This document shows, one piece after another, positions 10,067 through 32,000 of a stretch of DNA of 32,000 bases. A program made the translations under genes and the position numbers. Each line of letters begins with the position of its first letter. Positions within the stretch are counted from its first letter, which is position 1. This stretch comes from Dickeya solani IPO 2222 (GTDB lineage Bacteria; Pseudomonadota; Gammaproteobacteria; Enterobacterales; Enterobacteriaceae), in the NCBI RefSeq assembly GCF_001644705.1, contig NZ_CP015137.1, positions 570,001 through 602,000 on the forward strand, given 5' to 3'. The notes beneath the pieces were generated by a model, which searched no databases, was not told where the DNA came from, and saw only the letters and a program-made list of their open reading frames with translations.

Positions 10067-10528
10067 TCAGGGGTTCCCGTTACCGTTACTGCCGTTGTTG
10101 TGCGCGCCGGTGCCGACATTCCAGTTGCCGATGTCGTCATCGGTATCCGGCATGCCATCCGGGCCGTAGGAGAACACATCTACTTTGCCGTGACGGCCGG
10201 GGCTGACCAACTGGTATTCCGCGCCCCACGGGTCCTGCGGCAAGCGACGAATATAGCCATCCTGCGGGTAACTACGCGGCTCCGGCGGCGTGGTCGGTTT
10301 TTTCACCAGCGAGCCCAGTCCTTGCTCAGTCGTCGGGTAGCGACTGTTGTCCAGCTTGTACATATCCAGCGCGCTCTCCAGCGCGACTATGTCGCTGATG
10401 GCTTTCTGCCTGTCGGCCTTCTCTTTGTTGCCCATCAGGTTCGGGACAACCAGACTGGCCAGTACGCCGAGAATGACGATGACCACCATGATTTCCAACA
10501 GGGTAAAACCTCGCTGACGTCGTTCCAT
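10067..10528 (-). CDS. outG: Type II secretion major pseudopilin GspG
   Basis: 153 aa. MERRQRG/FTLLEIMVVIVILGVLASLVVPNLMGNKEKA is the canonical GspG N-terminus. ..DPWG..Y..SPG..G..D..SYG.DG also fits. There is an extra C-terminal tail NVGTGAHNNGSNGNGNP. Confidence 0.92.
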   Translation of the reverse strand: MERRQRGFTLLEIMVVIVILGVLASLVVPNLMGNKEKADRQKAISDIVALESALDMYKLDNSRYPTTEQGLGSLVKKPTTPPEPRSYPQDGYIRRLPQDPWGAEYQLVSPGRHGKVDVFSYGPDGMPDTDDDIGNWNVGTGAHNNGSNGNGNP

Positions 10529-10561
10529 CTTTTCGTTACCTCATTAACGTATCAATCTTCG

Positions 10562-11788: not shown

Positions 11789-11789
11789 G

Positions 11790-13286
11790 TCATTCCTCTT
11801 TTGTTACCCGCACCACCTCTTCCCAGGTGGTGACGCCCGCCAGAACCTTATCCAGCCCATCCTGACGAATCGTGGCCCGCTTGTCGCCCAGCATCCGGGC
11901 GATACCCAGCTCACTTTCGCCCTGATGAATGGCGGTGCGTACCGTATCGTCGATCAACAGCAACTCATGGATGCCGGTACGGCCGCGATAACCGTTGTAG
12001 TTGCACTTTTCGCAGCCGCCGGGGTGGTAGAGCGTGGCCCCCGCCGCCAGGCCGGTCTGTTCCGCCTGTTCGTCGTTGATGACATAAGGCTGACGGCAGG
12101 ACGGACACAGCGTACGCACCAACCGCTGCGCCAATACTCCCAACAGCGATGTGGACAACAGGAACGGCTCGATACCCATATCCTGCAGACGGGACAACGC
12201 GCCCAGCGCGCTGTTGGTATGCAACGTGGACAACACCAGATGGCCGGTCAGCGACGCCTGCACCGCGATCTGCGCGGTTTCTCCGTCACGGATTTCCCCC
12301 ACCAGCACCACGTCCGGGTCCTGACGCAGAATCGCGCGCAGACCACGGGCGAAGGTCATGTCGACCTTAGGGTTGACCTGAGTCTGGCCGATACCGTCCA
12401 ACTCGTATTCAATGGGGTCTTCCACCGTCATGATGTTGCGTTCGGCGGAATTGAGACGGCTCAGCGCCGCATACAGGGTGGTACTTTTCCCCGAACCGGT
12501 GGGACCGGTCACCAGAATGATGCCGTGCGGACGGTGGATCAACGTATCCAGTTGACGGCGGTTGTGCTCGGCCATCCCCAGCGTTTCCAGATCCAGCCGG
12601 ACGCTGTTCTTATCGAGCAGACGTAACACCACGCGCTCGCCGTAGTTGGAAGGTAGGGTCGACACGCGCACATCGATAGCGCGGCCGCCAATGCGCAGCG
12701 CCATGCGGCCATCCTGCGGGACACGCTTTTCGGCAATATCCAGCTTGGCCATCACCTTGATACGGGAAACCAGCAATGACGCCAGCTGGCGCTGCGGCCG
12801 CAGGATTTCCCGCAACACGCCATCGATACGAAACCGGATCAACAGGTGACGCTCAAAAGTTTCGATATGGATATCCGAAGCCTTGTGCTTGATGGCTTCG
12901 GTGAGCATGGCGTTGATCAGCCGGATAATCGGCGCGTCATCTTCGCCATCCAGCAAATCGTCGCTGTCCGGCAGCTCTTCCGCCAGCGTGTAGAAATCGA
13001 TATCGTTGCCGATGTCCTCCATCAGGCGGCGCGCTTCTTCGGAATCGCGCTGATAACGCATCACCAGTTGCCGTTCAAACTCTTCCGGACTGACCTGACT
13101 CACCGTCAACGGCACCCCGGCGACCCGGCGTGCTTCCAGCAACGCCAGCGCTGGCGTGCCGGGTACACAAACGACTTCCGCCGCCGTAGCCGACGCATCC
13201 TGCAACAACAAAATCTGCTGCGCCCGGGCAAAAGAAAACGGCAGCACCGGTCGCAGTTCAGGCGTGTTGACGGGCTGATCGCTCAT
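11790..13286 (-). CDS. outE: Type II secretion ATPase GspE
   Basis: 498 aa with Walker [10 protein letters not shown], Walker B/Asp box [12 protein letters not shown], His box [13 protein letters not shown] and a tetracysteine zinc motif CPSC..(x)..CEKC. Its ATG overlaps the outD stop (ATGA). Confidence 0.95.
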
Positions 13287-15415
13287 CGCCCCTCCGGCTG
13301 ATAAAAAGCGGAGATGGACGACTGCACCTGACGGAAGGTGTACGTGTTGCCACCGGATAAACGCAGGGTATTGTTATCCAGCACCCCATTGCCTTCGCCG
13401 CGCTGTTGCTGCTGTTCATTGTTGAAGGAACGGTATTTGCTGATCGACGCTTCCTGGAACTGTCCTGGGTCACGAATAATGGTCGGACGCAGGAACAGCA
13501 TCAGGTTACGTTTGCTCACCGTCTGACTCTTCGATCGGAACAGGCTGCCCAGCCACGGAATGTCGCCCAACAGCGGTACTTTATTATTGGTTTCAACCGC
13601 CGTTTTATCGAGCAGACCGCCTACTACTACGGTTTCACCATTGGTGACCATCACCGCATTATTCACGGTACGGGTGTTGAAGGTCACGCCCAGTGAACTG
13701 TTGGTACTGCTATTGCTGTCCGCCACACTGGACACTTCCTGCTCAATCTGCAGCAAAACCGAGTCGCCTTCGTTGATCTGCGGTTTTACCCGCAGCTTGA
13801 TGCCGACGGTCTTGCGTTCGACGGTATTGAAAATGTTATCGGCCGACGTGGTCTGCGAACCGGTCAGAACCGGTACTTCCTGGCCCACATTGAAGGTCGC
13901 TTCCATGTTATCCAGCGTCACAATGCTCGGCGTCGCCAGTACATCGTTTTTGCTGTCGCTGGACAACGCGGTCAGCAGCATTGACCAGTTACCGCGATAA
14001 AAACCGGCAGTAATACCGTTGAAACTGCTGAGTGCGCTGGCATACGCCGTCGTCAACGTACCGGCGCTGCGGAACTGGTCGGTTCCGATCACCGCCGTTG
14101 AAATCGGTATACCCGTGTTGGTGAACTGGGTCATGCCGGCACGCTTGTTGGCCCACTGAATGCCCAGATTCAACCCGTCGGCATCCTGAATTTCAGCGAT
14201 GATCGCTTCCACCAGCACCTGCGGACGGCGGATATCCAGTTGATTGATCACCTGCTCCAGGTCCCGCATGATATCGGGCGGCGCGGTAATGATCAGCGAG
14301 TTAGTCTGATCATGGGCGCGAACCGTCACTTCTTTGCCCTGAATCGTGATAGTGCGACCGCCTGAGCTGCTGGTCGAACCAAAAGCGGAACCAAACCCCA
14401 TACTGGAACTGGACGACGCCGAAGAAGAAGAATTGCCGGAAGAGCTGCTGGACGAACCGGAGCTGCTGTTGCTGTTTGAGCTACTGCCGGAACGGGGCGA
14501 GGACGGCCGCGACGCATTCGACGACGAATTGCGATTGCCGCTTGTTCCGTTGCCGGCCAGCACTTCGATCAGATCCAGCGCCTTGGCGTACTTGAGATAG
14601 ATGACCTTAGTTCCGCCCTGCACCACCTGCTTACGATCCAACTGGCGGATCATTTCCACCGCGCGCTGGCGGGCATTTTCTTCCCCGCTCACCACCACGG
14701 AGTTGGTGCGGCCATCCGCCACTACGTTAGCCAGCATGGTGCTGGGCAACGCATTTTTCTCATCGGTTTTGTTAAGATCGTTCACCAGTTTGGCGACATC
14801 TTCCGCGGATGCGTAGGTCAACGGCACGGTGATCATTTCACGATCGCCGGTCTTGTCCACCGTATTGACGATATCCACCAACCGCTTGATAACCGCGGCG
14901 CGCCCGGTCATCAGCAGGACGTTGGACGGTTCATAATGCACCACGGTGCCGGCGCCGGCGTTATCGTTGAGCTGACGCAGTAACGGCGCCAGATCGCGCG
15001 CCGCCACATTGTTGAGCGGCACCACGCGGGTCACCAGTTCATCGCCGATTCCAGGCTGTTCGTTATTGGCCAACGGAATGGAAGACGATTTGGCATCTTT
15101 GGAACGGATGACTTTCAATACGCCGTTATCCATCGGCACCACCGAGAAGCCATACACATCCAGCACACTAAGGAAAAACTGGTAGTACTGCCCTTCGTTC
15201 ATCATGTCATAACTGCGCACGCTGATGGTGCCGCGAACCGTCGGGTCAATAATCACCGTTTTATTCAGGTTCTTACTGACAGTATTGATGAACTCCTGAA
15301 TATCGGTTCCTTTGAAACTGGCTGAAAATTCGGCAGCCCAGCCACACGGCGAGCCAAGCAGGAGAACGGTTAGCCCCAGCCACCCCCAGCTTTTTTTGAT
15401 CCCTTTGCCAAGCAC
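13283..15415 (-). CDS. outD: Type II secretion outer-membrane secretin GspD
   Basis: Secretin C-domain (..[26 protein letters not shown]..) and N0-N3 domains. I prefer the GTG at 15415 as the start. It lies 1 nt after the outC TAA, is preceded by GGGGGAG, and gives a normal signal peptide (V)[29 protein letters not shown] (710 aa). The longest ORF starts at ATG 15463 (726 aa) and would overlap outC by 47 nt. Confidence 0.9.
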
Positions 15416-15416
15416 G

Positions 15417-16235
15417 TTACTCGTCTCCCCCAAATTCCATATAAATATCCTGGCGCTGGCCATCCCGCTCCACCGTCAGAGTAAAGTTATGCACATCAGC
15501 CATGCGTTCCATGGCTTTTTTCGCCTGATCTTCGTCACGCAAATCCAACCCGTTCAGGGCAACGGCCATATCGTTATCCTGAAGTCCGACGCGGTAGAAT
15601 GAATCGCTTTTCGGCCCCGGATTCAACCGGTAGCCCTTCAGCTTGCTGTCGTTCATGATCGGAGAGAAAGAAACGTAATCGCTCATCGTGGTGGATGCGC
15701 GCTGCTGAAGCTGCTCGTTGAGCTGCGCGCCAGGGACGCCGTCCTGGCCGTTATCCTCCTGACCGTACAGTCCCAGCACTTCATAACGCCCCTGATACTG
15801 CAGCACCACCCTATCCGGTCGGATCGATATGATTTTGGCGTTATAGCCGGGAACCTCTTCATTGACGCCACGACTGAACTGTTCGTTGTCTTTGCTGATG
15901 ATGGCGATAGAACGGGAAGCATCATCGCCAGCCATGACGCCGGTCAGCGAAAGATTCAGCGTAGAAGGAGGCAGATTGCTCATTTGAGACGCATCCAGCG
16001 CACCCGCCTTATTTTTCTCGGGAGAAACGCCGAATAACGTAAAATCATTCAGGGTGACAGGCTGCTGTCTGGCCTGTGCTGGGGTGATCTGCACGCTGGC
16101 GACCGGCCCATTATCCGGTAAACCAATACGCCAGAAGATCATTGCCAGTTGCTGACAAAAGAGCAGCATCAGCAGATAAAACAAAATCCGTCTGATGACA
16201 GACGGAGATAGCGGTGGCAGTTTCGAGATATTCAT
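15417..16235 (-). CDS. outC: Type II secretion inner-membrane protein GspC (HR and PDZ domains)
   Basis: The ORF-track start at 16241 is a TTG. The ATG at 16235 gives [35 protein letters not shown].. (272 aa), which matches my memory of the Dickeya OutC N-terminus. There is a C-terminal PDZ-like region (..[32 protein letters not shown]..). Confidence 0.9.
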
Positions 16236-16828
16236 CTGCAAACATTATCCCTATGTGTTCGCCGATTATCCTTGCCACGTTCGCGAACGTGGAATAAGGG
16301 CCATACAGGGCCTGTTTTCGGAGGCATGTCAGCCATTCCTGAAAGCGGTGCTTCTGCATTGTTGCCGTCTTGATGCCGTACCGGCCACATAAACCGCCTG
16401 TCCGGATAACGGATTACTCTCTCGCCAACCGATCCGACGGAAAGGCCGTAAGCGCAACATCATGACATTCATGTTCTGGTCGTTTCAGCCAGTCACGCCA
16501 CACGTGCACTCAACCTGTCTGCAATCGTGTTACTGGCTGACAGGCATCCTGTTTCCTGTTTATGCCAGACGATCTGCACGCAATATCATCGTGCCGGATA
16601 AGGCTAAAGCGCCCAATAATATAACTCAGGTTAATGACAAGACAATCCCCCGGTCAGCAACCATTTTCCCTACTATTTTCTGATAATCAACCAGTGTAAT
16701 CGGTCACACCCACGTTGATAGCTGTTTATCAGCAATGAGAAAAATGTTCAACAGCATAAGGAAATCACATTTTATTTACACGTTCATTTCATGCCATGAC
16801 GGATATTGCATCGCCAATGTGCACAAAA

Positions 16829-16847
16829 AATGAAATTCTCTTTTTCA
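16829..16847. promoter_or_regulatory. Weak candidate KdgR operator
   Basis: AATGAAATTCTCTTTTTCA matches about 14 of 17 positions of the KdgR consensus as I recall it (AATRAAAYRNYRTTTYA), with TGAAA..TTTCA arms. Out genes of Dickeya are reported to be KdgR-controlled. The match is only by eye. Confidence 0.25.
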
Positions 16848-16970
16848 ACAAACAGCTATCGCTCATTATCCATACAAATAGATCTGACTGGCGCCACTTT
16901 TCATTTATTCTTATCCCGCTATTTTCCCGGGATGAAAGACGATAACAAGCTGATGCAGTGCACAAATGAT

Positions 16971-17020
16971 ACTTAATGACACTTAATTGCGCTTAACGCC
17001 ACTTAATTACACTTAATCAC
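16971..17020. repeat. Five tandem 10-bp repeats (consensus ACTTAATNAC) in exact helical phase
   Basis: Read directly: acttaatgac / acttaattgc / gcttaacgcc / acttaattac / acttaatcac. These are consecutive 10-mers from 16971 to 17020. Confidence 0.85.
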
Positions 17021-17462
17021 ACGTTGTTATCGGTTATCCTGCAACCCATGTTTACACCCTCGCAGGCATAGTGTGTTGCTATCGCCAGACGATGGAATGA
17101 TAGTATGTCTGCCGCGTACCGTTAGCTCTACTCTGGTCCGGTCCGTTACCGTGGCCATATTGCCTTTGTCATCTATCGTCCCTGCGCACGCTGACAAACA
17201 GAAACATCAGCACGATGATAGTAAAACACCGTTTCATTAAAACATATTCCCGTTTTTTTTTTGCGACCAGTCTCAAAGTTTTACCGGCATTAATGATCAG
17301 CGTAATAGAATGTTGTCGAAATGGCATTCAGGTCACATAAATGGGATAAAACGTTGATTATTCCTTCTCATTCCCTGAAAAATGAGGCATCAGGCGTTCC
17401 GTCAAGGTCTATTATGGTGCGCTCAGGATGAGCGTCAGGTTGCATAACGTTTGAGGTAAAAC

Positions 17463-18083
17463 GTGGAAAAGACACCGGAAGTGACATCATCAACCCAGAC
17501 CGGTTACCGTATCCCCGGTTATTTGCTGGTTGTCTACGCGCTGTTGCTGTTTGCGCTGGGTTGGTTTGGCCATCAACGCTGGGCGGATGTCAGCCCGCCT
17601 TCGCTTTCAGTCCCTGCTGCAGCAATCGCTGCGCCGCCGATCAAAACCGGCGTGCCTGAGATAGCCGCTGACGCAACGACCACACGCCCTTCTCAGACAC
17701 CCGCGGATAACAGGGAAGCAGCCACGTCATCAGACGCCACAGCGGAAGATAAATCACCAAAACCGGCGGTAGGCTGGCAAACAGCCAAACCGGGTGAGTT
17801 GCCCTATATCGCCTTCAGTGCACATGTTTATACGTCTGATCCGGACAAACGCAGCGTTACCCTGAACGGGGAACGCTACCGGGAAGGCGACAATCCGTAT
17901 CAGGGGCTGGTGATCGAACAGATTGAACAGGATATGGTGATATTCAGCTTCAACGGCGAGCCGTTTATTCTGGATTCGTTGCAGGATTGGCCAGGCGGGA
18001 AGCCGGGAACTGACGCCGCGAAAGACAATGAACAGGAACCGGCGTCAAAACCGGAGAAAACCGTCAGAACAACGAAGAAATGA
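17463..18083 (+). CDS. outB: Type II secretion accessory protein GspB
   Basis: GTG start preceded by GAGG. 206 aa with an N-terminal TM anchor (YLLVVYALLLFALGWFG), an A/P/T-rich linker and a conserved C-domain (..LPYIAFSAHVYTSDPDKRSVTLNGERYREGD..). It lies beside outS and divergent from outC, as in Dickeya. Confidence 0.8.
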   Translation: MEKTPEVTSSTQTGYRIPGYLLVVYALLLFALGWFGHQRWADVSPPSLSVPAAAIAAPPIKTGVPEIAADATTTRPSQTPADNREAATSSDATAEDKSPKPAVGWQTAKPGELPYIAFSAHVYTSDPDKRSVTLNGERYREGDNPYQGLVIEQIEQDMVIFSFNGEPFILDSLQDWPGGKPGTDAAKDNEQEPASKPEKTVRTTKK

Positions 18084-21234: not shown

Positions 21235-21268
21235 ACCCTGATACGTTGCGCGTGCACCGCAACTGCTT

Positions 21269-23713
21269 TTACTGCCTGGGCAACGCATCCGCCTGCAACG
21301 CGGCAACATCGACATTGCTTTCCAGCACCATTTTCTGCGGCACCGCCAGCGGAATACTCTCTGTTCTCAGGCGTTTGATGATATCGAACAACAGATCGCT
21401 TTTGGCCGATGCCACCATGCGCGGACTGCTTACATATCCGGTCACGCTGAGCACCATGCCATTTGGGGTCAGTTGACTGAACATTACCGACGGCGCCGGG
21501 GTTTCCAGAATTTTTTCATGCGCATGATAAACATCCAGCAAAATGTTTTTAACCACATCCGGATCAATATCCAGTGGGAAGGTCAGCGCCAACGTCGCCA
21601 CCCCTTGCGGATTGCCCATGGTAATGTTGCGCACGTTCTGTGAAATAAACTGAGAGTTGGGCACGATCACCGTAGACCTGTCCCCCAACTGGATTTCCGT
21701 AGCACGCACATTGATACGCCGGATATCACCTTCAACGCCACTGATGTTGACCAGATCGCCCACCTTGACCGGCCGCTCAGTCAGCAGAATCAGCCCGGAA
21801 ATAAAGTTTTTCACGATTTCCTGTAAACCAAACCCGATCCCGACCGACAGGGCGCTGACAATCCACGCCAGCTTGCTCCACTCAATGCCCAGCGTCGCCA
21901 GCGTCAGCAGAATAATCAGGATGTAACCAATATTGGAATACAGCGTCACCAGCGAGGCCTTGATACCGGCTTCCAGCGTAGTTTTCGGAAAGAATTCGTG
22001 CTCCAGCCAGCGGCGGGATACGCGCAGACTGTAAATGCCGATAACCAGCAGGACCACGGCATTAACCAAATGGGCGGGTACGATACTGATGGATTCCAGG
22101 CCTTTTCCACCCCAGATCTCCACCGCTTTCTGCACCAGATCAACCGGTGTGGTCGAACCAAACGTACCATTCAGCAATGCCACTACAGCCATCAGAATCA
22201 ACAGAACTTTCAGCCCGGCAGACAAAATGGCCGCGGCCTGATCCAGATGACGCTCATCCAGATTCAGCGTTCGTTTGATCTGCCGTCCGCTGGCAAAAGC
22301 GGGGGAAAACAGGCTCTCGCACACGTCTTCTACAAAGGTAGTCGACAAATACAGCAAAGATAGCACCATGCCGACCCACACCAGTTCATAGGTCAGGAAA
22401 CGCGCCAGCGAGATATAGCCAATCAGCAGCGATACCAGCACCGCCAGCGTGGTCAACAAGACAGCCAGATGTATCAACCCCGACAAGGTTGAACGGGCTT
22501 CAGGCGTTTCGCCGGCTTCCACCATACGCCGGCGAATCTGGTTACTACGCAGGGCGATCGCCCCGGATGTCAGCGCCAGAAACAGTGACGACAGACCGTT
22601 GCCAACTATCGTCACCCCTACCGAAATCCCACTGGTGGTATTGATCTGTTCGATCACCCCAAAAACAATGATAAAGCTGGTGGCGATAATCGAGAAAGGC
22701 TCCATTGCCCGCGCCACCGGGTTGGCAATCGCCGGCAGGCGCCACGACGGGCGTTTATTGGAGAGAAATGCCCGCCCAAGCCCGGAAATCATCGAGCAGA
22801 ACACCACCAGTCGCACCAGGTTCTCCATGAACCCTGCGGCACGGTCGGTCACATCGCCATGGCGGGTGAAGACATAGTCCACCAGCAGGACCGCCATCCC
22901 CATCATCAAGACGGTAGAGAAGACGACGGCGATAGCCAGAAAACTGCGCCTCAGGCGACCTTCGGGCAACAGATGAATGCCCGCTCGCGCCAGATATTTT
23001 TCCAGTAGCTTTCGCCCTGCCGTACTGAGCGCCACCGCCAGCAACAGAAAAAATGCCGAGCCGTAACGCCATCCAGGTTGCCAGGCGGCGATAAACGCCT
23101 CGCTCAGGTCATCCTTCAAATCCGATAACCGCTCTATATCTTCCTGCATAGGATTGATAATGGGTGACCAAAAGCGGCTGCCAAGAATACTGCCGGAGTT
23201 GAGCGCCAGCTGATTTTTCAGCGCATTCCGGCGCAGCGCCAGAATCTGCGTCGACAGGTTCTCAGCCCCGGTTTTTATCGCCTGCACCTGGCTGGCCTGC
23301 GTATCCAGCTTCTGTTTCTGCTGGTTAAGCGTGGCACGCTTGCGCGTGACCTCGGCGGTTTCGCTCACCGCCGCCTGTGGCTGCGGTGCCGGCCCCAGCA
23401 CGTCCAGCTGAGCCTGCAATTGCGCGCGCATCGGCGTCAGCACTCCGGCGAGCTTGTCCGCATTGGCGACCAATTCCAGCGTGGTATCGTTCAATACATT
23501 GAGTTTGGCGTCAGTGGTGGTGCCGGAAACCTGCTGTTTGATGCCATCCAGCTGTTTCTGAAGCTTTACCAGTTCGGTATCCACATTCACTTTTTCTGCA
23601 TTTTCCCCCTGCCCATCCGGCGCAGGATCCGTCGCGGCCATACCTACCGAGCTGAAGGCAAACAGCGCCATCAGCAGCATCCAACCGTAAATTCCGAGTA
23701 GCCCTTTACGCAT
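21269..23713 (-). CDS. Large MscS-family mechanosensitive channel (MscK/MscM-like architecture)
   Basis: 814 aa. It has a signal peptide (..FAFSSVGMA/ATDP), a periplasmic Q/L-rich coiled-coil region, multiple TM helices and a C-terminal MscS core (..ALSVGIGFGLQEIVKNFISGLILLTERPVKVGDLV..GDIRRINVRATEI....VIVPNS.F). Confidence 0.85.
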   Translation of the reverse strand: MRKGLLGIYGWMLLMALFAFSSVGMAATDPAPDGQGENAEKVNVDTELVKLQKQLDGIKQQVSGTTTDAKLNVLNDTTLELVANADKLAGVLTPMRAQLQAQLDVLGPAPQPQAAVSETAEVTRKRATLNQQKQKLDTQASQVQAIKTGAENLSTQILALRRNALKNQLALNSGSILGSRFWSPIINPMQEDIERLSDLKDDLSEAFIAAWQPGWRYGSAFFLLLAVALSTAGRKLLEKYLARAGIHLLPEGRLRRSFLAIAVVFSTVLMMGMAVLLVDYVFTRHGDVTDRAAGFMENLVRLVVFCSMISGLGRAFLSNKRPSWRLPAIANPVARAMEPFSIIATSFIIVFGVIEQINTTSGISVGVTIVGNGLSSLFLALTSGAIALRSNQIRRRMVEAGETPEARSTLSGLIHLAVLLTTLAVLVSLLIGYISLARFLTYELVWVGMVLSLLYLSTTFVEDVCESLFSPAFASGRQIKRTLNLDERHLDQAAAILSAGLKVLLILMAVVALLNGTFGSTTPVDLVQKAVEIWGGKGLESISIVPAHLVNAVVLLVIGIYSLRVSRRWLEHEFFPKTTLEAGIKASLVTLYSNIGYILIILLTLATLGIEWSKLAWIVSALSVGIGFGLQEIVKNFISGLILLTERPVKVGDLVNISGVEGDIRRINVRATEIQLGDRSTVIVPNSQFISQNVRNITMGNPQGVATLALTFPLDIDPDVVKNILLDVYHAHEKILETPAPSVMFSQLTPNGMVLSVTGYVSSPRMVASAKSDLLFDIIKRLRTESIPLAVPQKMVLESNVDVAALQADALPRQ

Positions 23714-23984
23714 ACACCCAACGTACCCTTGATACTGTCGTCAACCGGTGCGGCAGTCCCGACACCGGTTGTCTTGAGATGAAACAGAAACCTGCAGCGA
23801 TACCTGCAGGCAAGATGGCTAATAACTTACTCAGCAATGGAGGTAAAACTCAAACAGATATCGCCGAAACTGTCCAATTTGCGAGATGGCTTCCGATGTA
23901 CCGGCTCTATTTGCAGTAATAACAGGGAGCTATACGCAGATTGTTCAGGGATTCGCCGACCAGTCCAAATCACGCGCCAATTCA

Positions 23985-24012
23985 TTGACTCATCAGGGAT
24001 GCCCGGTATAAT
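23985..24012 (+). promoter_or_regulatory. Sigma-70 promoter of the tRNA-Arg gene
   Basis: TTGACT (23985-23990), a 16-nt spacer, then TATAAT (24007-24012), followed by a GC-rich discriminator (CCAGCCC). It lies about 39 nt upstream of the mature tRNA 5' end. Confidence 0.7.
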
Positions 24013-24050
24013 CCAGCCCACATCTCGCCAAGCGACTGTATCCCATCAAG

Positions 24051-24127
24051 GCGCCCTTAGCTCAGTTGGATAGAGCAACGGCCTTCTAAGCCGTAGGTCA
24101 CAGGTTCGAATCCTGTAGGGCGTACCA
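24051..24127 (+). tRNA. argU: tRNA-Arg (anticodon UCU), argU-like, with encoded CCA
   Basis: Hand-folded cloverleaf. Acceptor GCGCCCT/AGGGCGT; D arm GCTC-AGTTGGATA-GAGC; anticodon arm ACGGC-CTTCTAA-GCCGT (TCT at 24085-24087); variable loop AGGTC; T arm ACAGG-TTCGAAT-CCTGT; discriminator A; CCA. The 5' two-thirds matches E. coli argU as recalled. Confidence 0.93.
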
Positions 24128-24201
24128 TACAAATCAATAATTTGAAATCATAAGTGGTATTATAACCAATTTTTACGGGTGTCTTAACGGGTACCGTAGC
24201 A

Positions 24202-24339
24202 TCATGCAGGCTCTTCAAAACCGCATTCTTCGCATGCCCAAACTTCTACGATCTCCCCGTCGATGACTTCTGTTTTTTTCTGCATTTCAGCGCCGCAAAT
24301 CGGGCAGTAGTGCGGCATTGTGACTGCTGTTTCACTCAT
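24202..24339 (-). CDS. 45-aa zinc-ribbon protein (two CxxC pairs)
   Basis: Not in the ORF track because it is under 60 aa. Hand translation: MSETAVTMPHYCPICGAEMQKKTEVIDGEIVEVWACEECGFEEPA, stop TGA at 24202-24204. Its ATG lies 1 nt after the stop of the upstream ORF (TGATATG), which suggests translational coupling. Confidence 0.55.
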   Translation of the reverse strand: MSETAVTMPHYCPICGAEMQKKTEVIDGEIVEVWACEECGFEEPA

Positions 24340-24340
24340 A

Positions 24341-24754
24341 TCAGACCCCGTATTGTGATTTCAGAGCCGCTAAGTCAGCGGAGAATTGTGATTTAAGAGA
24401 CCCATACTGCGATTGCAGAGCCGCTTGTTTCGATGCCTGCGCGCTTCCCCCTGCCAACGCGGCGACGCCGAATGCCTGCTCAATTGTCGACACGTTGGAC
24501 TGGTATTGAGCGGACAGCGTGCCGAGCGCGGCACGATAAAGCGCCGCGTTGTTTTCGGCGGGCAGTCCGGTGAGTGTAGTAAATGCCGTATCGACATAAA
24601 ACAGGCCGGTCGATTGGTTGTAATAATTGCCAATCTGACAAAAAACACCGGCGTTGATCTTGATAATATAATACCCATCGATTTGCGTATTTTCGTCGGC
24701 AACGATCAGGTTTTCAACTTGTGTATCGCCGTTTTTAATTAGCGCGTAATTCAT
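24341..24754 (-). CDS. Hypothetical protein (137 aa), phage-like small protein with an A/Q/S-rich C-terminal half
   Basis: ATG at 24754 preceded by AGAGAGGAAA. The N-terminal pattern MNYALIKNGDTQVENLIVADENT....IG.YYN..TGLFY recalls small prophage-encoded proteins. The C-terminal half is low complexity (..AQYQSN..ALAGGSAQASKQAALQSQYGSLKSQFSADLAALKSQYGV). No function can be assigned. Confidence 0.55.
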   Translation of the reverse strand: MNYALIKNGDTQVENLIVADENTQIDGYYIIKINAGVFCQIGNYYNQSTGLFYVDTAFTTLTGLPAENNAALYRAALGTLSAQYQSNVSTIEQAFGVAALAGGSAQASKQAALQSQYGSLKSQFSADLAALKSQYGV

Positions 24755-24873
24755 TCTGTTTCCTCTCTGATAAATTTACCATCCTGATATTTATCACCAA
24801 TACTGATGGGCTGATCGCCATATTCAATCAGTTCACAGCAGTTAATTAACTGCGTCTGTTTTAGCGGGGAAAT

Positions 24874-27800
24874 TCATGTTAGTAACTGATTAAAATCCTC
24901 AGAAACCAGATCACCTTGAATACATAACATATCTCTCGCTAATGCTCGACGCTTTTGCAGCAGTAAATCCAATGTTTCTTCAAAGGTGGACATACTGTCA
25001 TCTGTTATGGTTGGATAATAGACATACACGTCTTTTGTCTGACCAATACGATAGGCACGATCCGTCGCCTGGTCTTCTTTCGCCGGGTTCCAGCAACGGG
25101 TGAAATGGATAACATGATTGGCTTTCTGAACATTAACACCAAACCCGACAGCTACAGTTGAAAGAATAATGATCCCAAACCCAGGTTGCTCCTGAAATGT
25201 ATCGATAAGTTTTTGCCGACTATTAGCATTCTCACTCTTGGTACTGGTATCGCCATTTATGATATACGGCTTAAAACCAAATTGTTGGTGAATTGCATAT
25301 TGCAACTCGCGCTGTATATCCCTCAACTCGGTAAAGATAATCACCTTATCATTACCTCTATTCGCAATATCTTTGAGCTTACGCATCATCCACTCCAATT
25401 TGGGTGAGTGACCTCTTAACCGGCTATCCGGTTTTACACTATAGGGATGTGCACAAATCAACTTCAATCGATGTAATAAACCGAGCATGCCCATTCCAGA
25501 CTGCGCCAATTCATCCTGCACTCTTTGTCGATTCTGGTAAGAGGCAATCGATGAAATATACAAGTCGCGTTGCAAGGGTGACATTATCAGTTGCTTACAC
25601 GAGGTGTCCTCAACTTTTGCAGGCAAATCTTTCGCTACATCCTCTTTAGTGCGGCGTAGTGTCTGTACTTCGATAATGCGCCGTAGTGATTCAAGCACGA
25701 AACTATCTCTTTCTGTAGAACCTTCTATTGGTCGTAAATACTGTTTACCAAAATCATTGAGTGCCCCCAGTAAACCAGGTTGTGCAAAATCAAACAAACT
25801 CCAGAGATCCACCAACGTGTTTTCTACAGGTGTTCCAGTACATGCAACTTTAAACCTGGCCTGAATAGCGTTCGCAGCATGAGTAATCAATGCGGCAGGA
25901 TTCTTTATTTTCTGGGCTTCATCACAGACCATAATTGACCATTTTTGGCGTGCAAGAGAGAATTCCTGATCGCGCAAGGTTTCATAGGTTGTTAATACTA
26001 TTTTTGCACTCCCAACCCAACCTGGGCGCAGCAGATTTTTAATCCCCTGGGCCCTCAGTTCTGCGGGGATTTCATCCTTATGGAATTTAACCGCTTTTAC
26101 TGCATTACCATAGAGTTTAAGCACCTCAAGGTTTTCCGCATGAAAGAAATTATCAAGTTCACGCTCCCAGTTATCCAACAACGATACGGGCGCAACGATC
26201 ATCGTGGGTAAACCGTCAGGATTTTTTTCGATATACCACACAATAAAGGCCAGTATTTGCAGCGTCTTACCTAACCCCATATCGTCAGCCAATAAACAGC
26301 CTGAGGTTTCTTCTGGTGATTTAAGAAACAGTTGCTGCAACCACGCTAAGCCCTGTTGTTGATGTTCACGAAGATGAATATGTTCTTTAAGCAAAACAGG
26401 CAACACAGGTTCTGCATCTTTCGCATTCAACAATGCCTCGCGACGCTGCTTTATATAAGCCGCGTGCTCAATATTTTGCTCAATCTGCAGAACGGCTCTT
26501 TTTTCTGGCTCGGTGATGTCTTTATCTGTGTCGCTCTCCAAAGTCTCAATTTTCTTCTGCCAGTTTTTCAGTAACGATTTTGCATCATCAATCGGCAGTG
26601 ATTGCTCATTCCAAGGCATGGAGACGGTTGTTTCTTGTTGAGACTCAGCAGATTCAATGCGTTCTTCGAGGTCAGATAACTGCTCCTGGCTCTGCAGCTC
26701 CCAACCCTCAAAAAAATCACTCGCCAGCAATGCCTCACCTAAAGTCTCTGGCAACCATTCTTCACTCTCTCCTTTCATTAAAAAGGGAGAGGAAATCTTT
26801 TCAAACTCACCGATGCCAATGACGCGATCGCCATATTTATTCAGATCTAAAACTTCATCAAATTCGATGCCAGCGATCTCTTGTTGCCAGCGAAGCAAGA
26901 GTGATTGGTACTGCTCCAGCTGCTCTAACGTTAATTGGCTGAGTTCCAATTCGTAGCCTTGCCATATTCCCGCAGGTAAGCCCGACGCCAGTTTTACAGC
27001 CAGCTCCTGAATAAACCCTTCAAATTCATACGCTTTTGTCAGAGAAAAAGCGATAGCAGGTTGCGGCCTGGCGGCGATAGGTTCTAAAACAAGAGAAACG
27101 GACAAGATCCTTTTTGCTTCATCATCAAGCACAGGCGTGACAGAGAAACGATGGAAAAAAATATGCGCATCCTGCAGCGCTTCTTCATGCTGCTCAGGAG
27201 GGACAACACTGGCCGCTTCCTCACCAATGAAGGTGTAGGGATTGCGGATAAAAGAGACCGCATCATCACCCGCCACGCGCCGACCAGTAATTGAATGTAC
27301 GGACGATAGTACTTCTTTCACTTCGGGAGAGATAATCACGTGGCTGAGCGAACCATCTTCGCCCAGTACGCGATACTGATCCTGCACTAACTTATTGTTA
27401 TCAAAACTATTGAGCCATTGTGCTGGCTGGTCGTCGAACGAGGGTTCGATTTCGATTACCGGCGTGTTGTAAATGGTTGCTTTACGCAGTTTGAGTTTTA
27501 ACGATTCAGGCTTAACCACAATCGTCTTTGCCAGGTAATTATCTAATTCTGCCAGCGCCTTCTTAGCAAAACGCCGTATTTTCGCCCAGCCAAGCTGATT
27601 GGTATTTTCTCCCGCGCTGCGCTGCTGCTCATCACGAAATTGTTGCAGGGCAGAAAGAAGCTGCCAGTTCTCCCAGGTCTGTAAAAATTGTCCTTCAGGG
27701 CTGTTAAATATCGCCCCCGTTTTTTCAATCTGAACAGACCGGTCAGTAGCACTTTCCTTCCAGTCACGGGTATAAACGCTAAATTCAGGATCGCTCAGGC

Positions 27801-28116
27801 TTCCATTTCCTGCCAGACAAACTTTCAGCGGCTTAACCTCTGGAATACCTAATAATGGCAGGCTGGTTTGATGTTCCTCATCTGCCGATAAACGATACAG
27901 CTCATCCCAGGTAAGCAGCCAGCGATCGGATAACTCAACGACATACTCTTCTTCTGAAAGCTGCTCCATATAGGCAACCAGAGGCCACAGAGCATCCTCA
28001 TCAGCAAGGTTAAATAAAAACGAGAGGCCTGACTCTTCAACCTGATAACGGTGACTCATCAGTTTTTCTGAGGATGAATTATTACCCTTGAACTTACTGA
28101 GCAGGCGTTTCAGCAT
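24874..28116 (-). CDS. zorD: ZorD: SNF2-family ATPase/helicase with a roughly 580-aa N-terminal domain of unknown fold (Zorya type I effector component)
   Basis: 1080 aa. SNF2 motifs: I LADDMGLGKT (GLGKT = 26263-26277), Ia IVAPVSLLDNW, II VCDEAQKIKN (DEAQ = 25912-25923), III ACTGTPVEN, IV VIIFTE, V LSTVAVGFGVNV, VI QATDRAYRIGQ. Its ATG overlaps the zorC stop (TAATG). Size and position match ZorD of type I Zorya. Confidence 0.88.
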   Translation of the reverse strand: MLKRLLSKFKGNNSSSEKLMSHRYQVEESGLSFLFNLADEDALWPLVAYMEQLSEEEYVVELSDRWLLTWDELYRLSADEEHQTSLPLLGIPEVKPLKVCLAGNGSLSDPEFSVYTRDWKESATDRSVQIEKTGAIFNSPEGQFLQTWENWQLLSALQQFRDEQQRSAGENTNQLGWAKIRRFAKKALAELDNYLAKTIVVKPESLKLKLRKATIYNTPVIEIEPSFDDQPAQWLNSFDNNKLVQDQYRVLGEDGSLSHVIISPEVKEVLSSVHSITGRRVAGDDAVSFIRNPYTFIGEEAASVVPPEQHEEALQDAHIFFHRFSVTPVLDDEAKRILSVSLVLEPIAARPQPAIAFSLTKAYEFEGFIQELAVKLASGLPAGIWQGYELELSQLTLEQLEQYQSLLLRWQQEIAGIEFDEVLDLNKYGDRVIGIGEFEKISSPFLMKGESEEWLPETLGEALLASDFFEGWELQSQEQLSDLEERIESAESQQETTVSMPWNEQSLPIDDAKSLLKNWQKKIETLESDTDKDITEPEKRAVLQIEQNIEHAAYIKQRREALLNAKDAEPVLPVLLKEHIHLREHQQQGLAWLQQLFLKSPEETSGCLLADDMGLGKTLQILAFIVWYIEKNPDGLPTMIVAPVSLLDNWERELDNFFHAENLEVLKLYGNAVKAVKFHKDEIPAELRAQGIKNLLRPGWVGSAKIVLTTYETLRDQEFSLARQKWSIMVCDEAQKIKNPAALITHAANAIQARFKVACTGTPVENTLVDLWSLFDFAQPGLLGALNDFGKQYLRPIEGSTERDSFVLESLRRIIEVQTLRRTKEDVAKDLPAKVEDTSCKQLIMSPLQRDLYISSIASYQNRQRVQDELAQSGMGMLGLLHRLKLICAHPYSVKPDSRLRGHSPKLEWMMRKLKDIANRGNDKVIIFTELRDIQRELQYAIHQQFGFKPYIINGDTSTKSENANSRQKLIDTFQEQPGFGIIILSTVAVGFGVNVQKANHVIHFTRCWNPAKEDQATDRAYRIGQTKDVYVYYPTITDDSMSTFEETLDLLLQKRRALARDMLCIQGDLVSEDFNQLLT

Positions 28117-29801
28117 TATTTACTCCAGAATGTCAGTGGATCGCCATTTTTTTGTTTAAAACCTAAGCGGATAAGCTTTTCAACGTTTTCTGCATTACGT
28201 GAGGAAAGTCGAACATGTAGCGCTCCGCCAATATTACGCTTATCACTCACTGTGGCATTAAGTTGTTTAAGCAAGCTACGAATCTCTTGTTCACGCGTTC
28301 CTTTCGTTGCATTTTCTGACTGCGCATTTATCGTATTTACAGCGATTGGCGATGGCGATGCAGAAATATCAGCGGGTTGGTATTTAATACCTAATTTATG
28401 AAGTTCATCTTCATAGTTAATCATCCATCCAGTGAGATGATTATCACTATAGCCAAAAGCTGTTGGGGCATGACGATGCTTTATCGTACCGGCTTTTAAC
28501 TCATAATTTAAATGCAAGTCACTCTTTTCAGGGTTAAACGGTGCAGAGGACAACTCATAAACATATAGCGCGTTGCCTGTACGAGAAAATTCAACAAAAA
28601 GATAATTACCGATCTGCATAATTACGGCATTATCTGCGCTATTTCCCCCAGACAAACTACTTAGCCGTCCCTTATTTTTTTTCCGGAACGCGACGAAATC
28701 AGAATGCATGTTATGACGAGCATCTTGCCCTATCACTATGCGCGTGAACCCCATCTGATTGGCAAACCGTAACCAATAGAATAACCGCGCCTGATCAGCA
28801 TCATCATTACCCTTCAGCAACTGGAAAAAATGCGTCAAATCCTCTTTTGCCAGCCAGCTACGTACCATGCCGCAAATTTTTTCGCTGGTATCAGGATCTT
28901 TCAAATGAGTAAGCCAGAGATTTTGTTTACTGCGCAGCTGCGGGCTCCCCCAGCTTTCCAGCACCATCTGCTTAAGCTGTGTATGTGGAGTATTTCTGAA
29001 AGAAGAACGGTAATACTGCGTTAAACACACGCGTAAGATGATATTTTTATACCTTTCTCGCTGGCGGGCGAGCTCCAGCAGATTAGGCAGGTGCTGCTTA
29101 AATGCCTCATCATCCAGTTCTAAAATTTTGGCTAACAGCACAGCAAATGCCCGGTACCAAAGCCAGCTATCATCGGGAACCTGGGCAACGGTTTCCAACG
29201 CAGAAAAATCAACCAGCTTTCCAGAGCTCATTTTATTTGCCAGCAAATTCCCGGCATCCGGTGTGAACAAGTCCTGATATTCATCAATCACCGCCATCCA
29301 GCGCTTTTCTCGACGCACCTGGCCTTTAATCACACAATAGCCAATACGAAGCTGATCGCGTAACGAACACCAATTGTTATTCTCATCAGGCTTTTTTGCG
29401 TGATAGCCAAAATAGCTGCTACATAAAAACTTCCACTCCCGCCGTTTGAGTTTTTTGCTGTCTATACGCTGCTGGATCTCCTGCTCAACCCGGTTATAAA
29501 GCGAATCATCCTCCAGCAGCACCGGGAATGTCGCATCAGGGTCACTATCTGCCAGGCCCGCAAATATCAACTGCCAGTCGTACCTCGTTAGCACTTTTAA
29601 CTGACGAAGCGCAGCAATCGCTTTGTGTCGTTTTGTCAAAGGAGGGACTGTCGTCCGCTCGCTTTTCTCCATTTTGACGGCCAGATATTGCTCTGCGGCC
29701 CTGAGCTTAGGAAAATCACCAAAAGCCGTTGCTTCCGTGTCGATATGCCGCTTGACGGTGGCGGCAATCTCCGACGATAGGCGGGATAAGGCGGAGATCA
29801 T
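28116..29801 (-). CDS. zorC: ZorC: Zorya type I component (expected EH-signature domain protein)
   Basis: I prefer the ATG at 29801 (MISALSRLS.., 561 aa), which forms an ATGA overlap with the zorB stop. The longest ORF starts at 29822. There are no TM segments or obvious catalytic motifs by eye. The assignment rests on size and on its position between a MotB-like gene and an SNF2 gene. Confidence 0.75.
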   Translation of the reverse strand: MISALSRLSSEIAATVKRHIDTEATAFGDFPKLRAAEQYLAVKMEKSERTTVPPLTKRHKAIAALRQLKVLTRYDWQLIFAGLADSDPDATFPVLLEDDSLYNRVEQEIQQRIDSKKLKRREWKFLCSSYFGYHAKKPDENNNWCSLRDQLRIGYCVIKGQVRREKRWMAVIDEYQDLFTPDAGNLLANKMSSGKLVDFSALETVAQVPDDSWLWYRAFAVLLAKILELDDEAFKQHLPNLLELARQRERYKNIILRVCLTQYYRSSFRNTPHTQLKQMVLESWGSPQLRSKQNLWLTHLKDPDTSEKICGMVRSWLAKEDLTHFFQLLKGNDDADQARLFYWLRFANQMGFTRIVIGQDARHNMHSDFVAFRKKNKGRLSSLSGGNSADNAVIMQIGNYLFVEFSRTGNALYVYELSSAPFNPEKSDLHLNYELKAGTIKHRHAPTAFGYSDNHLTGWMINYEDELHKLGIKYQPADISASPSPIAVNTINAQSENATKGTREQEIRSLLKQLNATVSDKRNIGGALHVRLSSRNAENVEKLIRLGFKQKNGDPLTFWSK

Positions 29802-30541
29802 AACGGCATCTCCAACTGACATTTTTCTGCTGTGGGTCCGGCAACGCTATCCACATCTACCGCAGCTTTATCATGTTCATCTTTCAGGCCAAAGAACTGC
29901 ATGCGCAATTCAACGCGGCGGCTGGCCTCTTTACTCTCTTTAGCATTGTTAAACGAAACGCCACCCGCAAGAAATAGCTTGCGGATCTGCTCCTGTTGCA
30001 GGGGCGTTATCTGCTGCTGTAAACGGCTACGACTGTCGAGTAGGCTACACATCACCCATTCTGAGCGCTGTAACGAAAGATGTAAGTTATACAAATAGGA
30101 GCCGTCGGTATCGGTAAAACCTTCAATGACAATTTGTTTAAACCACTTTTGCCCTTCCTCGCTGTTTGCGGCCTCCAACACCAGCGGCACAACATCCTGT
30201 AGCGCTTTCTGACCGTCAGCATTGAGGAAAAAGCGGTTGTGGTCGAAGCGGCCCGCTTCACCAAAGCTGATACGGTTATCACGGCAATCAACAACAATGG
30301 TTTTATTGAGGTTGCGGGCGTGCAACTCTAAACGCTCACAAAGGCGGGTAATATCCTGCCCGCGTAATTTCTCACCCTGCTCTACACGCTGGATCCGCTG
30401 CGTCACCGAGCTTAATGAAGCAACCATGACGACCAGAAACAACACCATCATGGCCATCATTAGATCCGCATAGGAAATCCAGAAGGGTTTCTCTGCTTCA
30501 TCCGTGCGCCGGGTCTTAATACGAAATGTTTGACCGAACAT
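29798..30541 (-). CDS. zorB: ZorB: MotB/OmpA-like stator subunit (single TM segment with invariant Asp, C-terminal peptidoglycan-binding-type domain)
   Basis: 247 aa. N-terminus ..KPFWISYADLMMAMMVLFLVVMVASL parallels the MotB segment (..AYADFMTAMMAFFLV..), with Asp26 at 30464-30466. The C-terminal region ..VIEGFTDTDGSYLYNLHLSLQRSEWV.. fits the OmpA/MotB pattern G.TD..G....N..LS..R. An SD sequence (AGGGGGG) lies in the 13-nt gap after zorA. Confidence 0.88.
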   Translation of the reverse strand: MFGQTFRIKTRRTDEAEKPFWISYADLMMAMMVLFLVVMVASLSSVTQRIQRVEQGEKLRGQDITRLCERLELHARNLNKTIVVDCRDNRISFGEAGRFDHNRFFLNADGQKALQDVVPLVLEAANSEEGQKWFKQIVIEGFTDTDGSYLYNLHLSLQRSEWVMCSLLDSRSRLQQQITPLQQEQIRKLFLAGGVSFNNAKESKEASRRVELRMQFFGLKDEHDKAAVDVDSVAGPTAEKCQLEMPL

Positions 30542-30554
30542 AATTCAGCCCCCC

Positions 30555-32000
30555 TTATGCCGACACTTTAGAAAGCACTTCTTCAAGGGTTTCAATACTT
30601 TCACCAAGCTCGTCAATACCGCTTCCCAGACGTTTAACGGCGCTGTCTAAATTGGCATCCAGCGCCCCTAACGTGGTATCCAGGCTTGTTTTCATGCCGT
30701 CCGAGAACTGATTGAATCCATTAGCCAGCACCTGTCCTGCGTTTTCGAGGAACTCTTTCGCTTCGCGGTTGTAGTCATGCAACCCTTCATTGTGCTGTTT
30801 CAGTTCTTTCAGGAATTGGCTACGTGCCTCCAGCTCAGACTGGGCATTGGCAATAATGCCTTCCAGCAGCGTGATTGATTTTGCGACCGCCTCACGGTTA
30901 TTACGATAATCCGCCACCACCGAGCTAAGCTCCTGGCTGGCCTGGCTCAATGTATTTCCCGCGCCTTGCGCCTTAGTAAGAACATCAGCAGTAAGATGAT
31001 TAGCGTCTTTAACCTTGTCTCCCGCGGTTTCAAAACGCTCAGCAGCGAGGCGCATTTTATCGGCTCCGGTATTCATATCCTGCAAGTGAGCAGACGTCTG
31101 CTCTGCCAGTTTGCGCAGCGTACTTTCCGTAGCGCCCTGCTGTTCATTCAACGCATTAAGCAGCGAGCGGACTTGTTCGTCAAAACCGGCAATAATCTGC
31201 TGAGTTTCCTGATGAAGAGAGGTCTGAGTATCCTGCTGATGACTAGCCAGTTGCTGCTGCCCCTGTTCAAGCTGAGTAAACAATGAGCCCAGTTTTTCGC
31301 CTAACGCCTCAACGGACGCCGCCATTTGTTTCATGGTTTCACTTTGGCCTTGCTGGGACGTTTGCTGGATAGAGTCAATAAACGCTTTCATTTGCTCAGC
31401 CATCGCTTTTTCACGCACTTCACTGTCGGCAAATATTTTTTCCAGCTGCTGCGCCATCCGCTCACCCGCGCCTTCACCTTCGGCACCAATTTTGGCGACG
31501 GACGATTGCAAGCTGGCAAGCATATCGTTCATCCCAGCCTGCATCGCTACCTGTCCGGATTTCATCTCATTCAGTAGCTGTGACATCAGCTCAGCGCTGC
31601 CCTGCCGAGTGTCTTCACTGGCATTACGCATATCCTGTAACAAACCGGCAAAACCCGATTGCATAGCCTCAATCGCGCCAACAGATTGCCCCATCATCTG
31701 CTGCATATTTTCGAACTGCTTGCCAAAGGTATTGTCGAGTTTTGACATAAATGCCGTCAGGACATCCTGCAACATGTTCTGTACCTGACCCGACTGATCG
31801 CCACTGGCCGTCTGTACCGCACCCGCAATTTTATCTAACGGCGACTTCAGACTATTTTCGATGGCACCACTCACTTGCTCGGCAAATTGCTGACCAGTAT
31901 CCCGGTAGGTGGAAGATAAGGTGTGCGCTAGTTTTTCATTTTCAGCGACCTGACTTGCCACCAGGTTCTGCAGCATATCGCGGAGATCGGTCACCAGGCT
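30555..32000 (-). CDS. zorA: ZorA (MotA/ExbB-like stator subunit): C-terminal coiled-coil tail only; the 5' part lies beyond the window
   Basis: The frame stays open to base 32000 (..SLVTDLRDML..). At least 481 codons are visible, Q/A/E/L/S/M-rich with one Pro, no Cys and no Trp, and no TM segment, which is consistent with the long ZorA tail. The MotA-like membrane domain cannot be seen here. Identity is inferred from the downstream zorBCD. Confidence 0.75.
   Translation of the reverse strand, partial: SLVTDLRDMLQNLVASQVAENEKLAHTLSSTYRDTGQQFAEQVSGAIENSLKSPLDKIAGAVQTASGDQSGQVQNMLQDVLTAFMSKLDNTFGKQFENMQQMMGQSVGAIEAMQSGFAGLLQDMRNASEDTRQGSAELMSQLLNEMKSGQVAMQAGMNDMLASLQSSVAKIGAEGEGAGERMAQQLEKIFADSEVREKAMAEQMKAFIDSIQQTSQQGQSETMKQMAASVEALGEKLGSLFTQLEQGQQQLASHQQDTQTSLHQETQQIIAGFDEQVRSLLNALNEQQGATESTLRKLAEQTSAHLQDMNTGADKMRLAAERFETAGDKVKDANHLTADVLTKAQGAGNTLSQASQELSSVVADYRNNREAVAKSITLLEGIIANAQSELEARSQFLKELKQHNEGLHDYNREAKEFLENAGQVLANGFNQFSDGMKTSLDTTLGALDANLDSAVKRLGSGIDELGESIETLEEVLSKVSA

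Follow-up and report, generated by a model that had tools for sequence, protein, structure and literature searches.

What does a gene pair resembling a flagellar stator do beside a gene for a SNF2-type ATPase in the genome of a plant pathogen? The question is raised by four genes on the minus strand, at 24874 to 32000 of a 32,000-nucleotide (nt) stretch of Dickeya solani IPO 2222 DNA (contig NZ_CP015137.1, positions 570,001 to 602,000), which we call the window throughout. An earlier reading made from the letters with no database searches, here called the sequence-only reading, had proposed that these genes form a type I Zorya anti-phage system. Zorya was defined as a system type in 2018 and was structurally solved in 2024-25. 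D. solani is a quarantine pathogen of potato, and phage biocontrol is under development. We conclude with high confidence that the locus is an intact type I Zorya operon (zorA-zorB-zorC-zorD) of D. solani and the ortholog of EcZorI from Escherichia coli NCTC9026. In agreement with the proposal, all four proteins score above the NCBIfam cut-offs and align end to end with structures in the PDB.

The four genes and their family assignment

The four genes are adjacent and co-directional, and they follow each other in the order A-B-C-D. zorB (29798-30541, minus strand) encodes 247 amino acids (aa), with one transmembrane (TM) helix that carries Asp26 and, after it, a peptidoglycan-binding domain of the OmpA/MotB type. 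zorC (28116-29801, minus strand) encodes an EH-signature DNA-binding protein of 561 aa, counted from the ATG of its overlap with zorB. zorD (24874-28116, minus strand) encodes 1080 aa, which comprise an N-terminal autoinhibitory domain and a C-terminal SNF2-type ATPase/nuclease domain. The 3' part of zorA (30555 to beyond 32000, minus strand) encodes the last 481 of the 729 aa of the protein, its coiled-coil cytoplasmic tail, and the gene runs past the edge of the window. The junctions were read directly in the sequence. The TAA of zorA is followed by a spacer of 13 nt (30542-30554, minus strand; GGGGGGCTGAATT) that includes the Shine-Dalgarno-like run GGGGGG, and then by the ATG of zorB. zorB and zorC overlap as ATGA, and zorC and zorD overlap as TAATG. 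This layout on the minus strand, including the gap with its Shine-Dalgarno sequence, is exactly the one that had been described before, and the open reading frames (ORFs) of zorB, zorC and zorD have the sizes of 247, 561 and 1080 aa that were given then. The four genes are coupled in translation and travel together as an 8.1-kb cassette.

An in-frame ATG at 29822, upstream of the zorC start, would yield a protein of 568 aa. The start for 561 aa is the better-supported one, because three comparisons agree on it. From residue 1 onward the protein aligns to EcZorC (MISALSRLS versus MIPALNSLS), the alignment to the NCBIfam ZorC profile also begins at residue 1, and the gene calls for zorC in Kosakonia begin at the same ATGA start.

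The N-terminal part of ZorA had to be recovered from outside the window. The exact ZorB protein is present on many public contigs, and contig L001 (GCA_016404945.1) matches window 21257-32000 without a single difference (100% identity, 10,744 bases). L001 was therefore used to extend the window past 32000. On this contig the full ZorA of 729 aa is encoded at 7798-9987, with its start at the window-equivalent position 32744, outside the window. Hydrophobic segments at about residues 13-47, 135-155 and 176-197 give the full-length protein an N-terminal domain with three TM segments, which is MotA/ExbB-like and is followed by the long coiled-coil tail. The sequence-only reading had called the stator MotAB-like and had named, for the first gene, a MotA/ExbB-type membrane domain in its upstream part as a test. 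The three segments and the full-length ZorA1 match on L001 supply that domain. The MotA-like part lies wholly outside the window, so this description could be made good only from the identical contig.

For the family assignment, we used NCBIfam equivalog models with curated cut-offs of 750 bits for ZorA1, 400 bits for ZorB1, 490 bits for ZorC and 1500 bits for ZorD. The full ZorA scores 1394 bits against ZorA1 (NF041794) over its full length, ZorB scores 432 bits, ZorC 830 bits and ZorD 1805 bits. In PADLOC the best or near-best models are ZorA1, ZorB1, ZorC1 and ZorD1, with full-length matches. The part of ZorA inside the window scores 806 bits against the PADLOC model ZorA1 (PDLC00603) and covers profile positions 247-726 of 727.

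The domain content of each protein points the same way. The single TM segment of ZorB carries WISYAD26LMM, which includes the essential Asp, and the protein matches Pfam MotB_plug at 27.7 bits (cut-off 24) and has the peptidoglycan-binding domain. ZorC has the conserved Glu and His of EH-signature proteins. Its score against Pfam EH_Signature is 113.8 bits, well above the cut-off of 27.5, and the label of an orphan protein, given to it earlier, has to be withdrawn. ZorD, with about 1080 aa, has a C-terminal SNF2-type ATPase with a Walker A motif (GLGKT at 614) and a DEAQ box (at 732), and among the Pfam models it matches SNF2-rel_dom with 204 bits and Helicase_C with 56, as expected from the SNF2 motifs recognized in it before. 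Thus, the profile and PADLOC searches that had been suggested as a check place the four proteins in ZorA1, ZorB1, ZorC1 and ZorD1, and ZorC in EH_Signature.

Other types of Zorya do not account for the locus. Type II and type III systems share the concept of the ZorAB motor, but here the downstream genes are zorC and zorD, not those for ZorE (an HNH nickase) or ZorF/ZorG. The ZorA2 and ZorA3 models match the D. solani ZorA weakly. NCBIfam ZorA2, whose cut-off is 700 bits, gives 47, and the PADLOC scores for ZorA2/3 and ZorB2/3 are far under those of the type 1 models.

The locus is already known: it is a typical example of a system that has been characterised, and it is annotated in GenBank/RefSeq. 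More than 40 contigs, those of IPO 2222 and D s0432-1 among them, carry identical proteins that NCBI names 'type I Zorya anti-phage system protein ZorA1/ZorB1/ZorC/ZorD [Dickeya solani]'. CP017454 and CM001860 both belong to D. solani. The exact proteins thus come from a plant pathogen, as had been stated. In the library that was searched, three papers name Dickeya and Zorya together, each of them outside the title and abstract. For basic biology there is nothing new here, since the D. solani proteins already carry Zorya names, and the earlier description of the locus as the most unusual biology of the window gives way to that of a standard instance. The practical relevance is modest. A conserved and intact type I Zorya system is a candidate determinant of phage host range in the clonal species D. 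solani.

Comparison with EcZorI and the expected mechanism

The references for this comparison were the EcZorI structures 8QYD, 8R68 and 8QY7 of E. coli NCTC9026 and an annotated E. coli operon (NZ_CP025847.1, locus L005). The EcZorI entries in the PDB are 8QYD, 8QYH, 8QYK and 8QYY for ZorAB, 8R68 for ZorC, and 8QY7 and 8QYC for ZorD (Hu et al., Nature 2024, PMC11946911). For each of the four proteins the best PDB match is the corresponding EcZorI chain, with E-values from 1e-133 down to 0. The alignments to 8QYD (ZorA5B2), 8R68 (ZorC) and 8QY7 (ZorD) are colinear, end-to-end and nearly gap-free. In particular, the full ZorA aligns to the EcZorA chain of 8QYD over residues 1-727 of both without a gap, and its window part aligns to residues 249-727 of 8qyd_A. 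ZorB matches 8qyd_F with an E-value of 5e-133, ZorC matches 8r68_A with an E-value of 1e-155, and ZorD matches 8qy7_A with 1554 bits over residues 1-1079.

In gene order and in the three junction geometries (13-nt gap, ATGA and TAATG) the type I Zorya operon of E. coli agrees with that of D. solani, and its zorA-zorB spacer is also 13 nt long (GGGGTGACGGCTG). Identity to the E. coli proteins of NZ_CP025847.1 is 67.2% for ZorA (729/729 aa), 85.4% for ZorB (247/246 aa), 44.8% for ZorC (561/560 aa) and 63.5% for ZorD (1080/1080 aa). Divergence is also uneven within the proteins. The tip of the ZorA tail (483-729) is 56% identical and the C-terminal 100 aa of ZorC are 28% identical, and in ZorD the N-domain is 55% and the SNF2 domain 71% identical. 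A megablast search with the island that carries the operon matched none of 5,426 complete E. coli genomes, because the DNA identity to E. coli is only about 70%. With a word size of 11, blastn matched 87 E. coli genomes at about this identity, in genes annotated zorA1/zorB1. The E. coli context, a neighbourhood with tRNA-Thr, IS1 and type I restriction-modification, differs from that in D. solani.

We checked 26 residues that have been published as functionally or structurally important (PMC11946911), and 25 of them are kept. The exception is Y220 of ZorA, which is F220 in D. solani. In EcZorI this residue is a main-chain carbonyl ligand of a Ca2+ site (PMC11946911). In ZorB the four cysteines of the disulfides are kept, as are D26, V46, R49, R52 and the peptidoglycan-binding residues Y151, N152, L155 and R159, and those kept in ZorA are E86, E89, P126, P136, I144, T147, P163, E164, S184 and D217. 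E404 and H444 of ZorC correspond to E400 and H443 of EcZorC. In ZorD, K617, E653 and D732-E-A-Q735 correspond to K615, E651 and D730-Q733 of EcZorD. Defence by EcZorI is altered or abolished by mutation of D26, Y151, N152, L155, R159 and the four Cys in ZorB, of P136, I144, T147 and S184 in ZorA, of E400/H443 in ZorC, and of E651 and D730/E731 in ZorD (PMC11946911). All residues with such a mutational effect are conserved in D. solani. The others are structural residues according to the same work, namely E86, E89, P126, P163, E164 and D217 of ZorA, V46, R49 and R52 of ZorB, and the Walker A K615 of ZorD (PMC11946911).

In E. coli, ZorA5B2 is a proton-driven 5:2 rotary motor of the inner membrane, in which the periplasmic dimer of ZorB binds peptidoglycan and the C-termini of ZorA form a pentameric coiled-coil tail of about 70 nm (PMC11946911, PMC11890865). 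Perturbation of the envelope by phage switches the motor on. The incoming phage DNA is then degraded by ZorC, which binds DNA, and ZorD, an ATP-dependent nuclease that is autoinhibited, and the recruitment of both requires the tail (PMC11946911, PMC11890865). Recruitment of ZorD needs both the function of the motor and the tip of the tail, defence requires the proton-motive force, as shown with carbonyl cyanide m-chlorophenylhydrazone (CCCP), and Zorya defence is described as direct, not abortive, immunity (PMC11946911). The mechanism that the sequence-only reading had described, in which an envelope-sensing ZorAB motor signals through the tail to ZorC and ZorD, agrees with this account by Hu et al. 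(Nature 2024, PMC11946911).

Since the residues are conserved, we expect that the D. solani system would work as EcZorI does. Five ZorA and two ZorB subunits would assemble into a proton-driven 5:2 rotary motor in the inner membrane, with the periplasmic ZorB dimer bound to peptidoglycan, Asp26 as the probable proton carrier, and Thr147 and Ser184 of ZorA as a putative ion-selectivity filter. The five C-termini of ZorA would bundle into a cytoplasmic coiled-coil tail of about 70 nm. Perturbation of the envelope at phage entry would activate the motor, and the signal would pass down the tail. The tail would in turn recruit ZorC, the EH-signature DNA binder, and ZorD, the autoinhibited SNF2 ATPase/nuclease, leading to local degradation of phage DNA. 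The outcome would be direct immunity and not abortive infection. From the identity of 45-85% to EcZorI we infer anti-phage activity in Dickeya and, with it, phage resistance, the ZorA5B2 stoichiometry and the nuclease activity of ZorD.

Points against this reading and alternative explanations

Several observations weigh against the assignment of the locus as a working type I Zorya system. Pfam MotA_ExbB on the full-length ZorA is below threshold, with 15.2 bits against 22.9 over residues 128-200. We relied therefore on ZorA-specific models and on the PDB alignments. Such a score is usual for ZorA, because the precomputed Pfam match of this protein in the collection is PF28082 (ZorA-like_t1). 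ZorB scores 27.1 bits against Pfam OmpA, just below the cut-off of 27.2. Of the earlier description of ZorB, the Asp26 in the YAD of the TM helix stands, and the OmpA-type C-terminal domain falls narrowly short of its Pfam model. ZorC is just 45% identical to EcZorC, and 28% over the last 100 aa, and the way in which the effectors are recruited or DNA is bound could therefore differ in detail from EcZorI. Upstream of zorA the promoter matches are at the consensus level only, with 7 found against 2.8 expected from shuffles (standard deviation 1.7). Protection of Dickeya from phage and expression of the operon are both presumed here. Finally, the top PADLOC match of ZorD carries another name, DpdE (PDLC02854, v2.0.0), with 1613 bits against 1531 bits for ZorD1 (PDLC00632).

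The uneven divergence invites an alternative. ZorB is 85% identical to its E. coli counterpart and ZorC 45%, with 56% at the tip of the ZorA tail, and this could reflect a co-evolving interface between tail and effectors, with a different recruitment or a different specificity for the DNA target in the lineage of D. solani and Kosakonia. Alternatively, two small ORFs downstream of zorD, between it and tRNA-Arg, could be an unrecognised accessory or independent defence module. We regard both explanations as unlikely. They draw on the uneven divergence and on the position of the ORFs. The first of them (24341-24754, minus strand) encodes 137 aa, of which the N-terminal 60 match phrog_18617 (function unknown). 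The second (24202-24339, minus strand) encodes a zinc ribbon of 45 aa (CxxC...CxxC). The two are co-directional with zorABCD and 1 nt apart. No PADLOC or NCBIfam family matches either of them at or above its cut-off. They are not called beside the zorABCD cassette of Kosakonia, whose similarity stops at window 24886, and at 90% clustering the 137-aa protein is found in D. solani only. Because they match no family and are absent from the Kosakonia cassette, we rejected the two ORFs as components of the Zorya system.

A second possibility, and a slighter one, is that the operon was acquired horizontally and is now a decaying or silent relic, non-functional or unexpressed in D. solani. No integrase or mobility genes are left, and remnants of an IS21-like element and a split gene for a sulfur-binding domain and an HNH domain lie just upstream. 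In addition, 1-nt deletions in GGGGG runs fragment zorC and zorD in another D. solani assembly (L004, GCA_013339845.1; L001-equivalent positions 11897 and 12828). These deletions sit in homopolymers and are probably sequencing errors, though a real inactivation by frameshift is possible. The split zorC of a further D. solani assembly, L002 (11702-11801), is a scaffold gap of 100 N. We do not take the split calls in L002 and L004 as decay in the window, given the N gap and the homopolymer context. All ORFs in the window are intact. Of the checked residues only ZorA Y220F, at a main-chain ligand, has changed, and identical proteins occur on more than 40 D. solani contigs, with the sequence fixed across the clonal species. 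Thus, an operon that is intact in sequence remains the preferred reading, and a relic is very improbable.

The DpdE label would suggest that the SNF2 protein is DpdE and that the locus belongs to Dpd, a system of 7-deazaguanine DNA modification and restriction, and not to Zorya. The chance of this is minimal. NCBIfam DpdE gives 28.7 bits on ZorD against a cut-off of 500, whereas the ZorD model is passed with 1805 against 1500. The alignment to EcZorD (8QY7) covers residues 1-1079, the gene is coupled in translation with zorC, zorB and zorA, and the 20-kb locus has no dpdA, dpdB, dpdC or preQ0 genes. Because of the low NCBIfam score, the PADLOC label appears to be a cross-labelling of one family, from a mislabelled or overlapping model, and PDLC02854 could mislead automated calls. 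We did not assign the locus to Dpd, with NCBIfam DpdE under its cut-off and no dpd genes in the 20-kb neighbourhood.

ZorAB also resemble other ion-driven machines. MotAB, ExbBD, TolQR and GldLM share with them the 5:2 ion-driven architecture known from the literature, the Asp in a TM helix and the peptidoglycan-binding C-domain. The tail of ZorA has about 500 residues, and the output of Zorya is the recruitment of nucleases, whereas that of MotAB is torque on a rotor. ZorB is without the linker and plug of MotB (PMC11946911). That the pair is a conventional stator of the MotAB, ExbBD or TolQR type, acting in motility or envelope energisation and adjacent to a helicase by coincidence, would fit the MotB_plug and OmpA-like Pfam matches, the weak MotA_ExbB match and the conserved Asp in the TM helix of ZorB, but can be set aside almost completely, as the NCBIfam flagellar MotB model (PRK09041) gives 20.3 bits against a cut-off of 277, MotA, ExbB and TolQ have no coiled-coil tail of about 500 aa, the coupling of the four genes is the same as in the E. 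coli Zorya operon, and the window has no flagellar, Ton or Tol genes.

The variable slot at tRNA-Arg(UCU) and the rest of the window

Having assigned the operon to type I Zorya, we can consider how it is placed in the genome. The variable island with the Zorya operon is limited on its right-hand side by the 3' end of tRNA-Arg(UCU), which ARAGORN calls at 24051-24127 on the plus strand. GC content is 0.42-0.51 over 24001-32000, compared with 0.55-0.64 for most of the remaining window, and the low-GC DNA beside tRNA-Arg that had been noted before is thereby borne out. A synteny survey seeded with the flanking MscK-like channel covered three loci, and it maps the break and does not survey the genus. 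D. undicola, D. oryzae and Brenneria alni cease to match at the 3' end of tRNA-Arg (L001 16414, window 24128), with the break for Brenneria alni one base further in (L001 16413, window 24129). The island thus combines a boundary at the 3' end of a tRNA gene with atypical composition. In D. undicola similarity resumes at a roxA-like JmjC gene, which delimits a variable segment of 10.9 kb (window-equivalent 24128-35054). The D. solani cassette therefore sits in a low-GC variable slot of 10.9 kb between roxA (JmjC) and tRNA-Arg(UCU).

The same slot in D. undicola (L006 1577-9590) holds the type I restriction-modification genes hsdR, hsdM and hsdS and genes for an AbiEii toxin/DUF6088. In D. oryzae (L007 1-9595) transposases of the IS110 family and the rve type adjoin the tRNA, and the roxA-side boundary was not found within this locus. 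The slot between roxA and tRNA-Arg(UCU) behaves as a hotspot for defence islands in Dickeya, with Zorya in D. solani and type I restriction-modification plus AbiE in D. undicola, and it does so without an integrase. No integrase ORF is present in the 10.9-kb island, and the 20.7-kb locus has no exact repeat of at least 11 nt of the 3' half of the tRNA or of its downstream 30 nt. Because there is neither an integrase nor an attachment (att) repeat of at least 11 nt, the model of a classical integrative tRNA island is unsupported, and we rejected it. The tRNA-linked, horizontally acquired island proposed by the sequence-only reading holds in that the GC is low, synteny breaks at the tRNA and a related cassette exists in Kosakonia. 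It does not extend to the integrase and att repeat of the classical type.

The cassette in Kosakonia radicincitans (CP015113.1, L010) gives the best view of the extent of the mobile unit. There, 8.1 kb of zorABCD have a DNA identity of 87% with D. solani (L001 7546-15656, that is window 24886 to window-equivalent 32996). The similarity begins about 250 bp before the start of zorA and gives out at window 24886, where 12 nt remain to the final base of the zorD stop. The proteins are 96.7% (ZorA), 97.2% (ZorB), 91.3% (ZorC) and 91.4% (ZorD) identical. The flanks are unrelated, as the Kosakonia cassette lies beside hsdRMS, Mrr, SymE and an HNH gene and that of D. solani between roxA and tRNA-Arg(UCU). 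Since the two share zorABCD with the upstream region and differ in their flanks, the mobile unit is limited to that stretch. This comparison indicates that the 8.1-kb cassette moves between Enterobacterales. Clustered at 90%, ZorA and ZorB fall in clusters with members from several Dickeya species and from Kosakonia. In the cluster of ZorC the only species named is D. solani, and the ZorD cluster has three members, of which the one that is named is also D. solani.

Upstream of zorA and outside the window, L001 carries an ORF with a sulfur-binding domain (SBD) of the ScoMcrA type (6097-6522) and an HNH_2 ORF (6550-6903). The two are apparently one SBD-HNH restriction gene that is split in two. 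Remnants of an IS21-like transposase lie in L001 5467-7000, for example at 5773-5973 ('REVLYDNMKTVV...').

The rest of the window agrees with the statement of the sequence-only reading that no flagellar genes are nearby. It contains genes for an MscK-like channel, for aminotransferases and for Out type II secretion. The Out cluster (4629-18083) comprises genes for the prepilin peptidase, L, K, F, E, the D secretin and C on the minus strand, and for OutB on the plus strand. GC falls to 0.47-0.53 around 15000-18000, in the divergent region of outC and outB. The presence of this cluster is consistent with a soft-rot pathogen.

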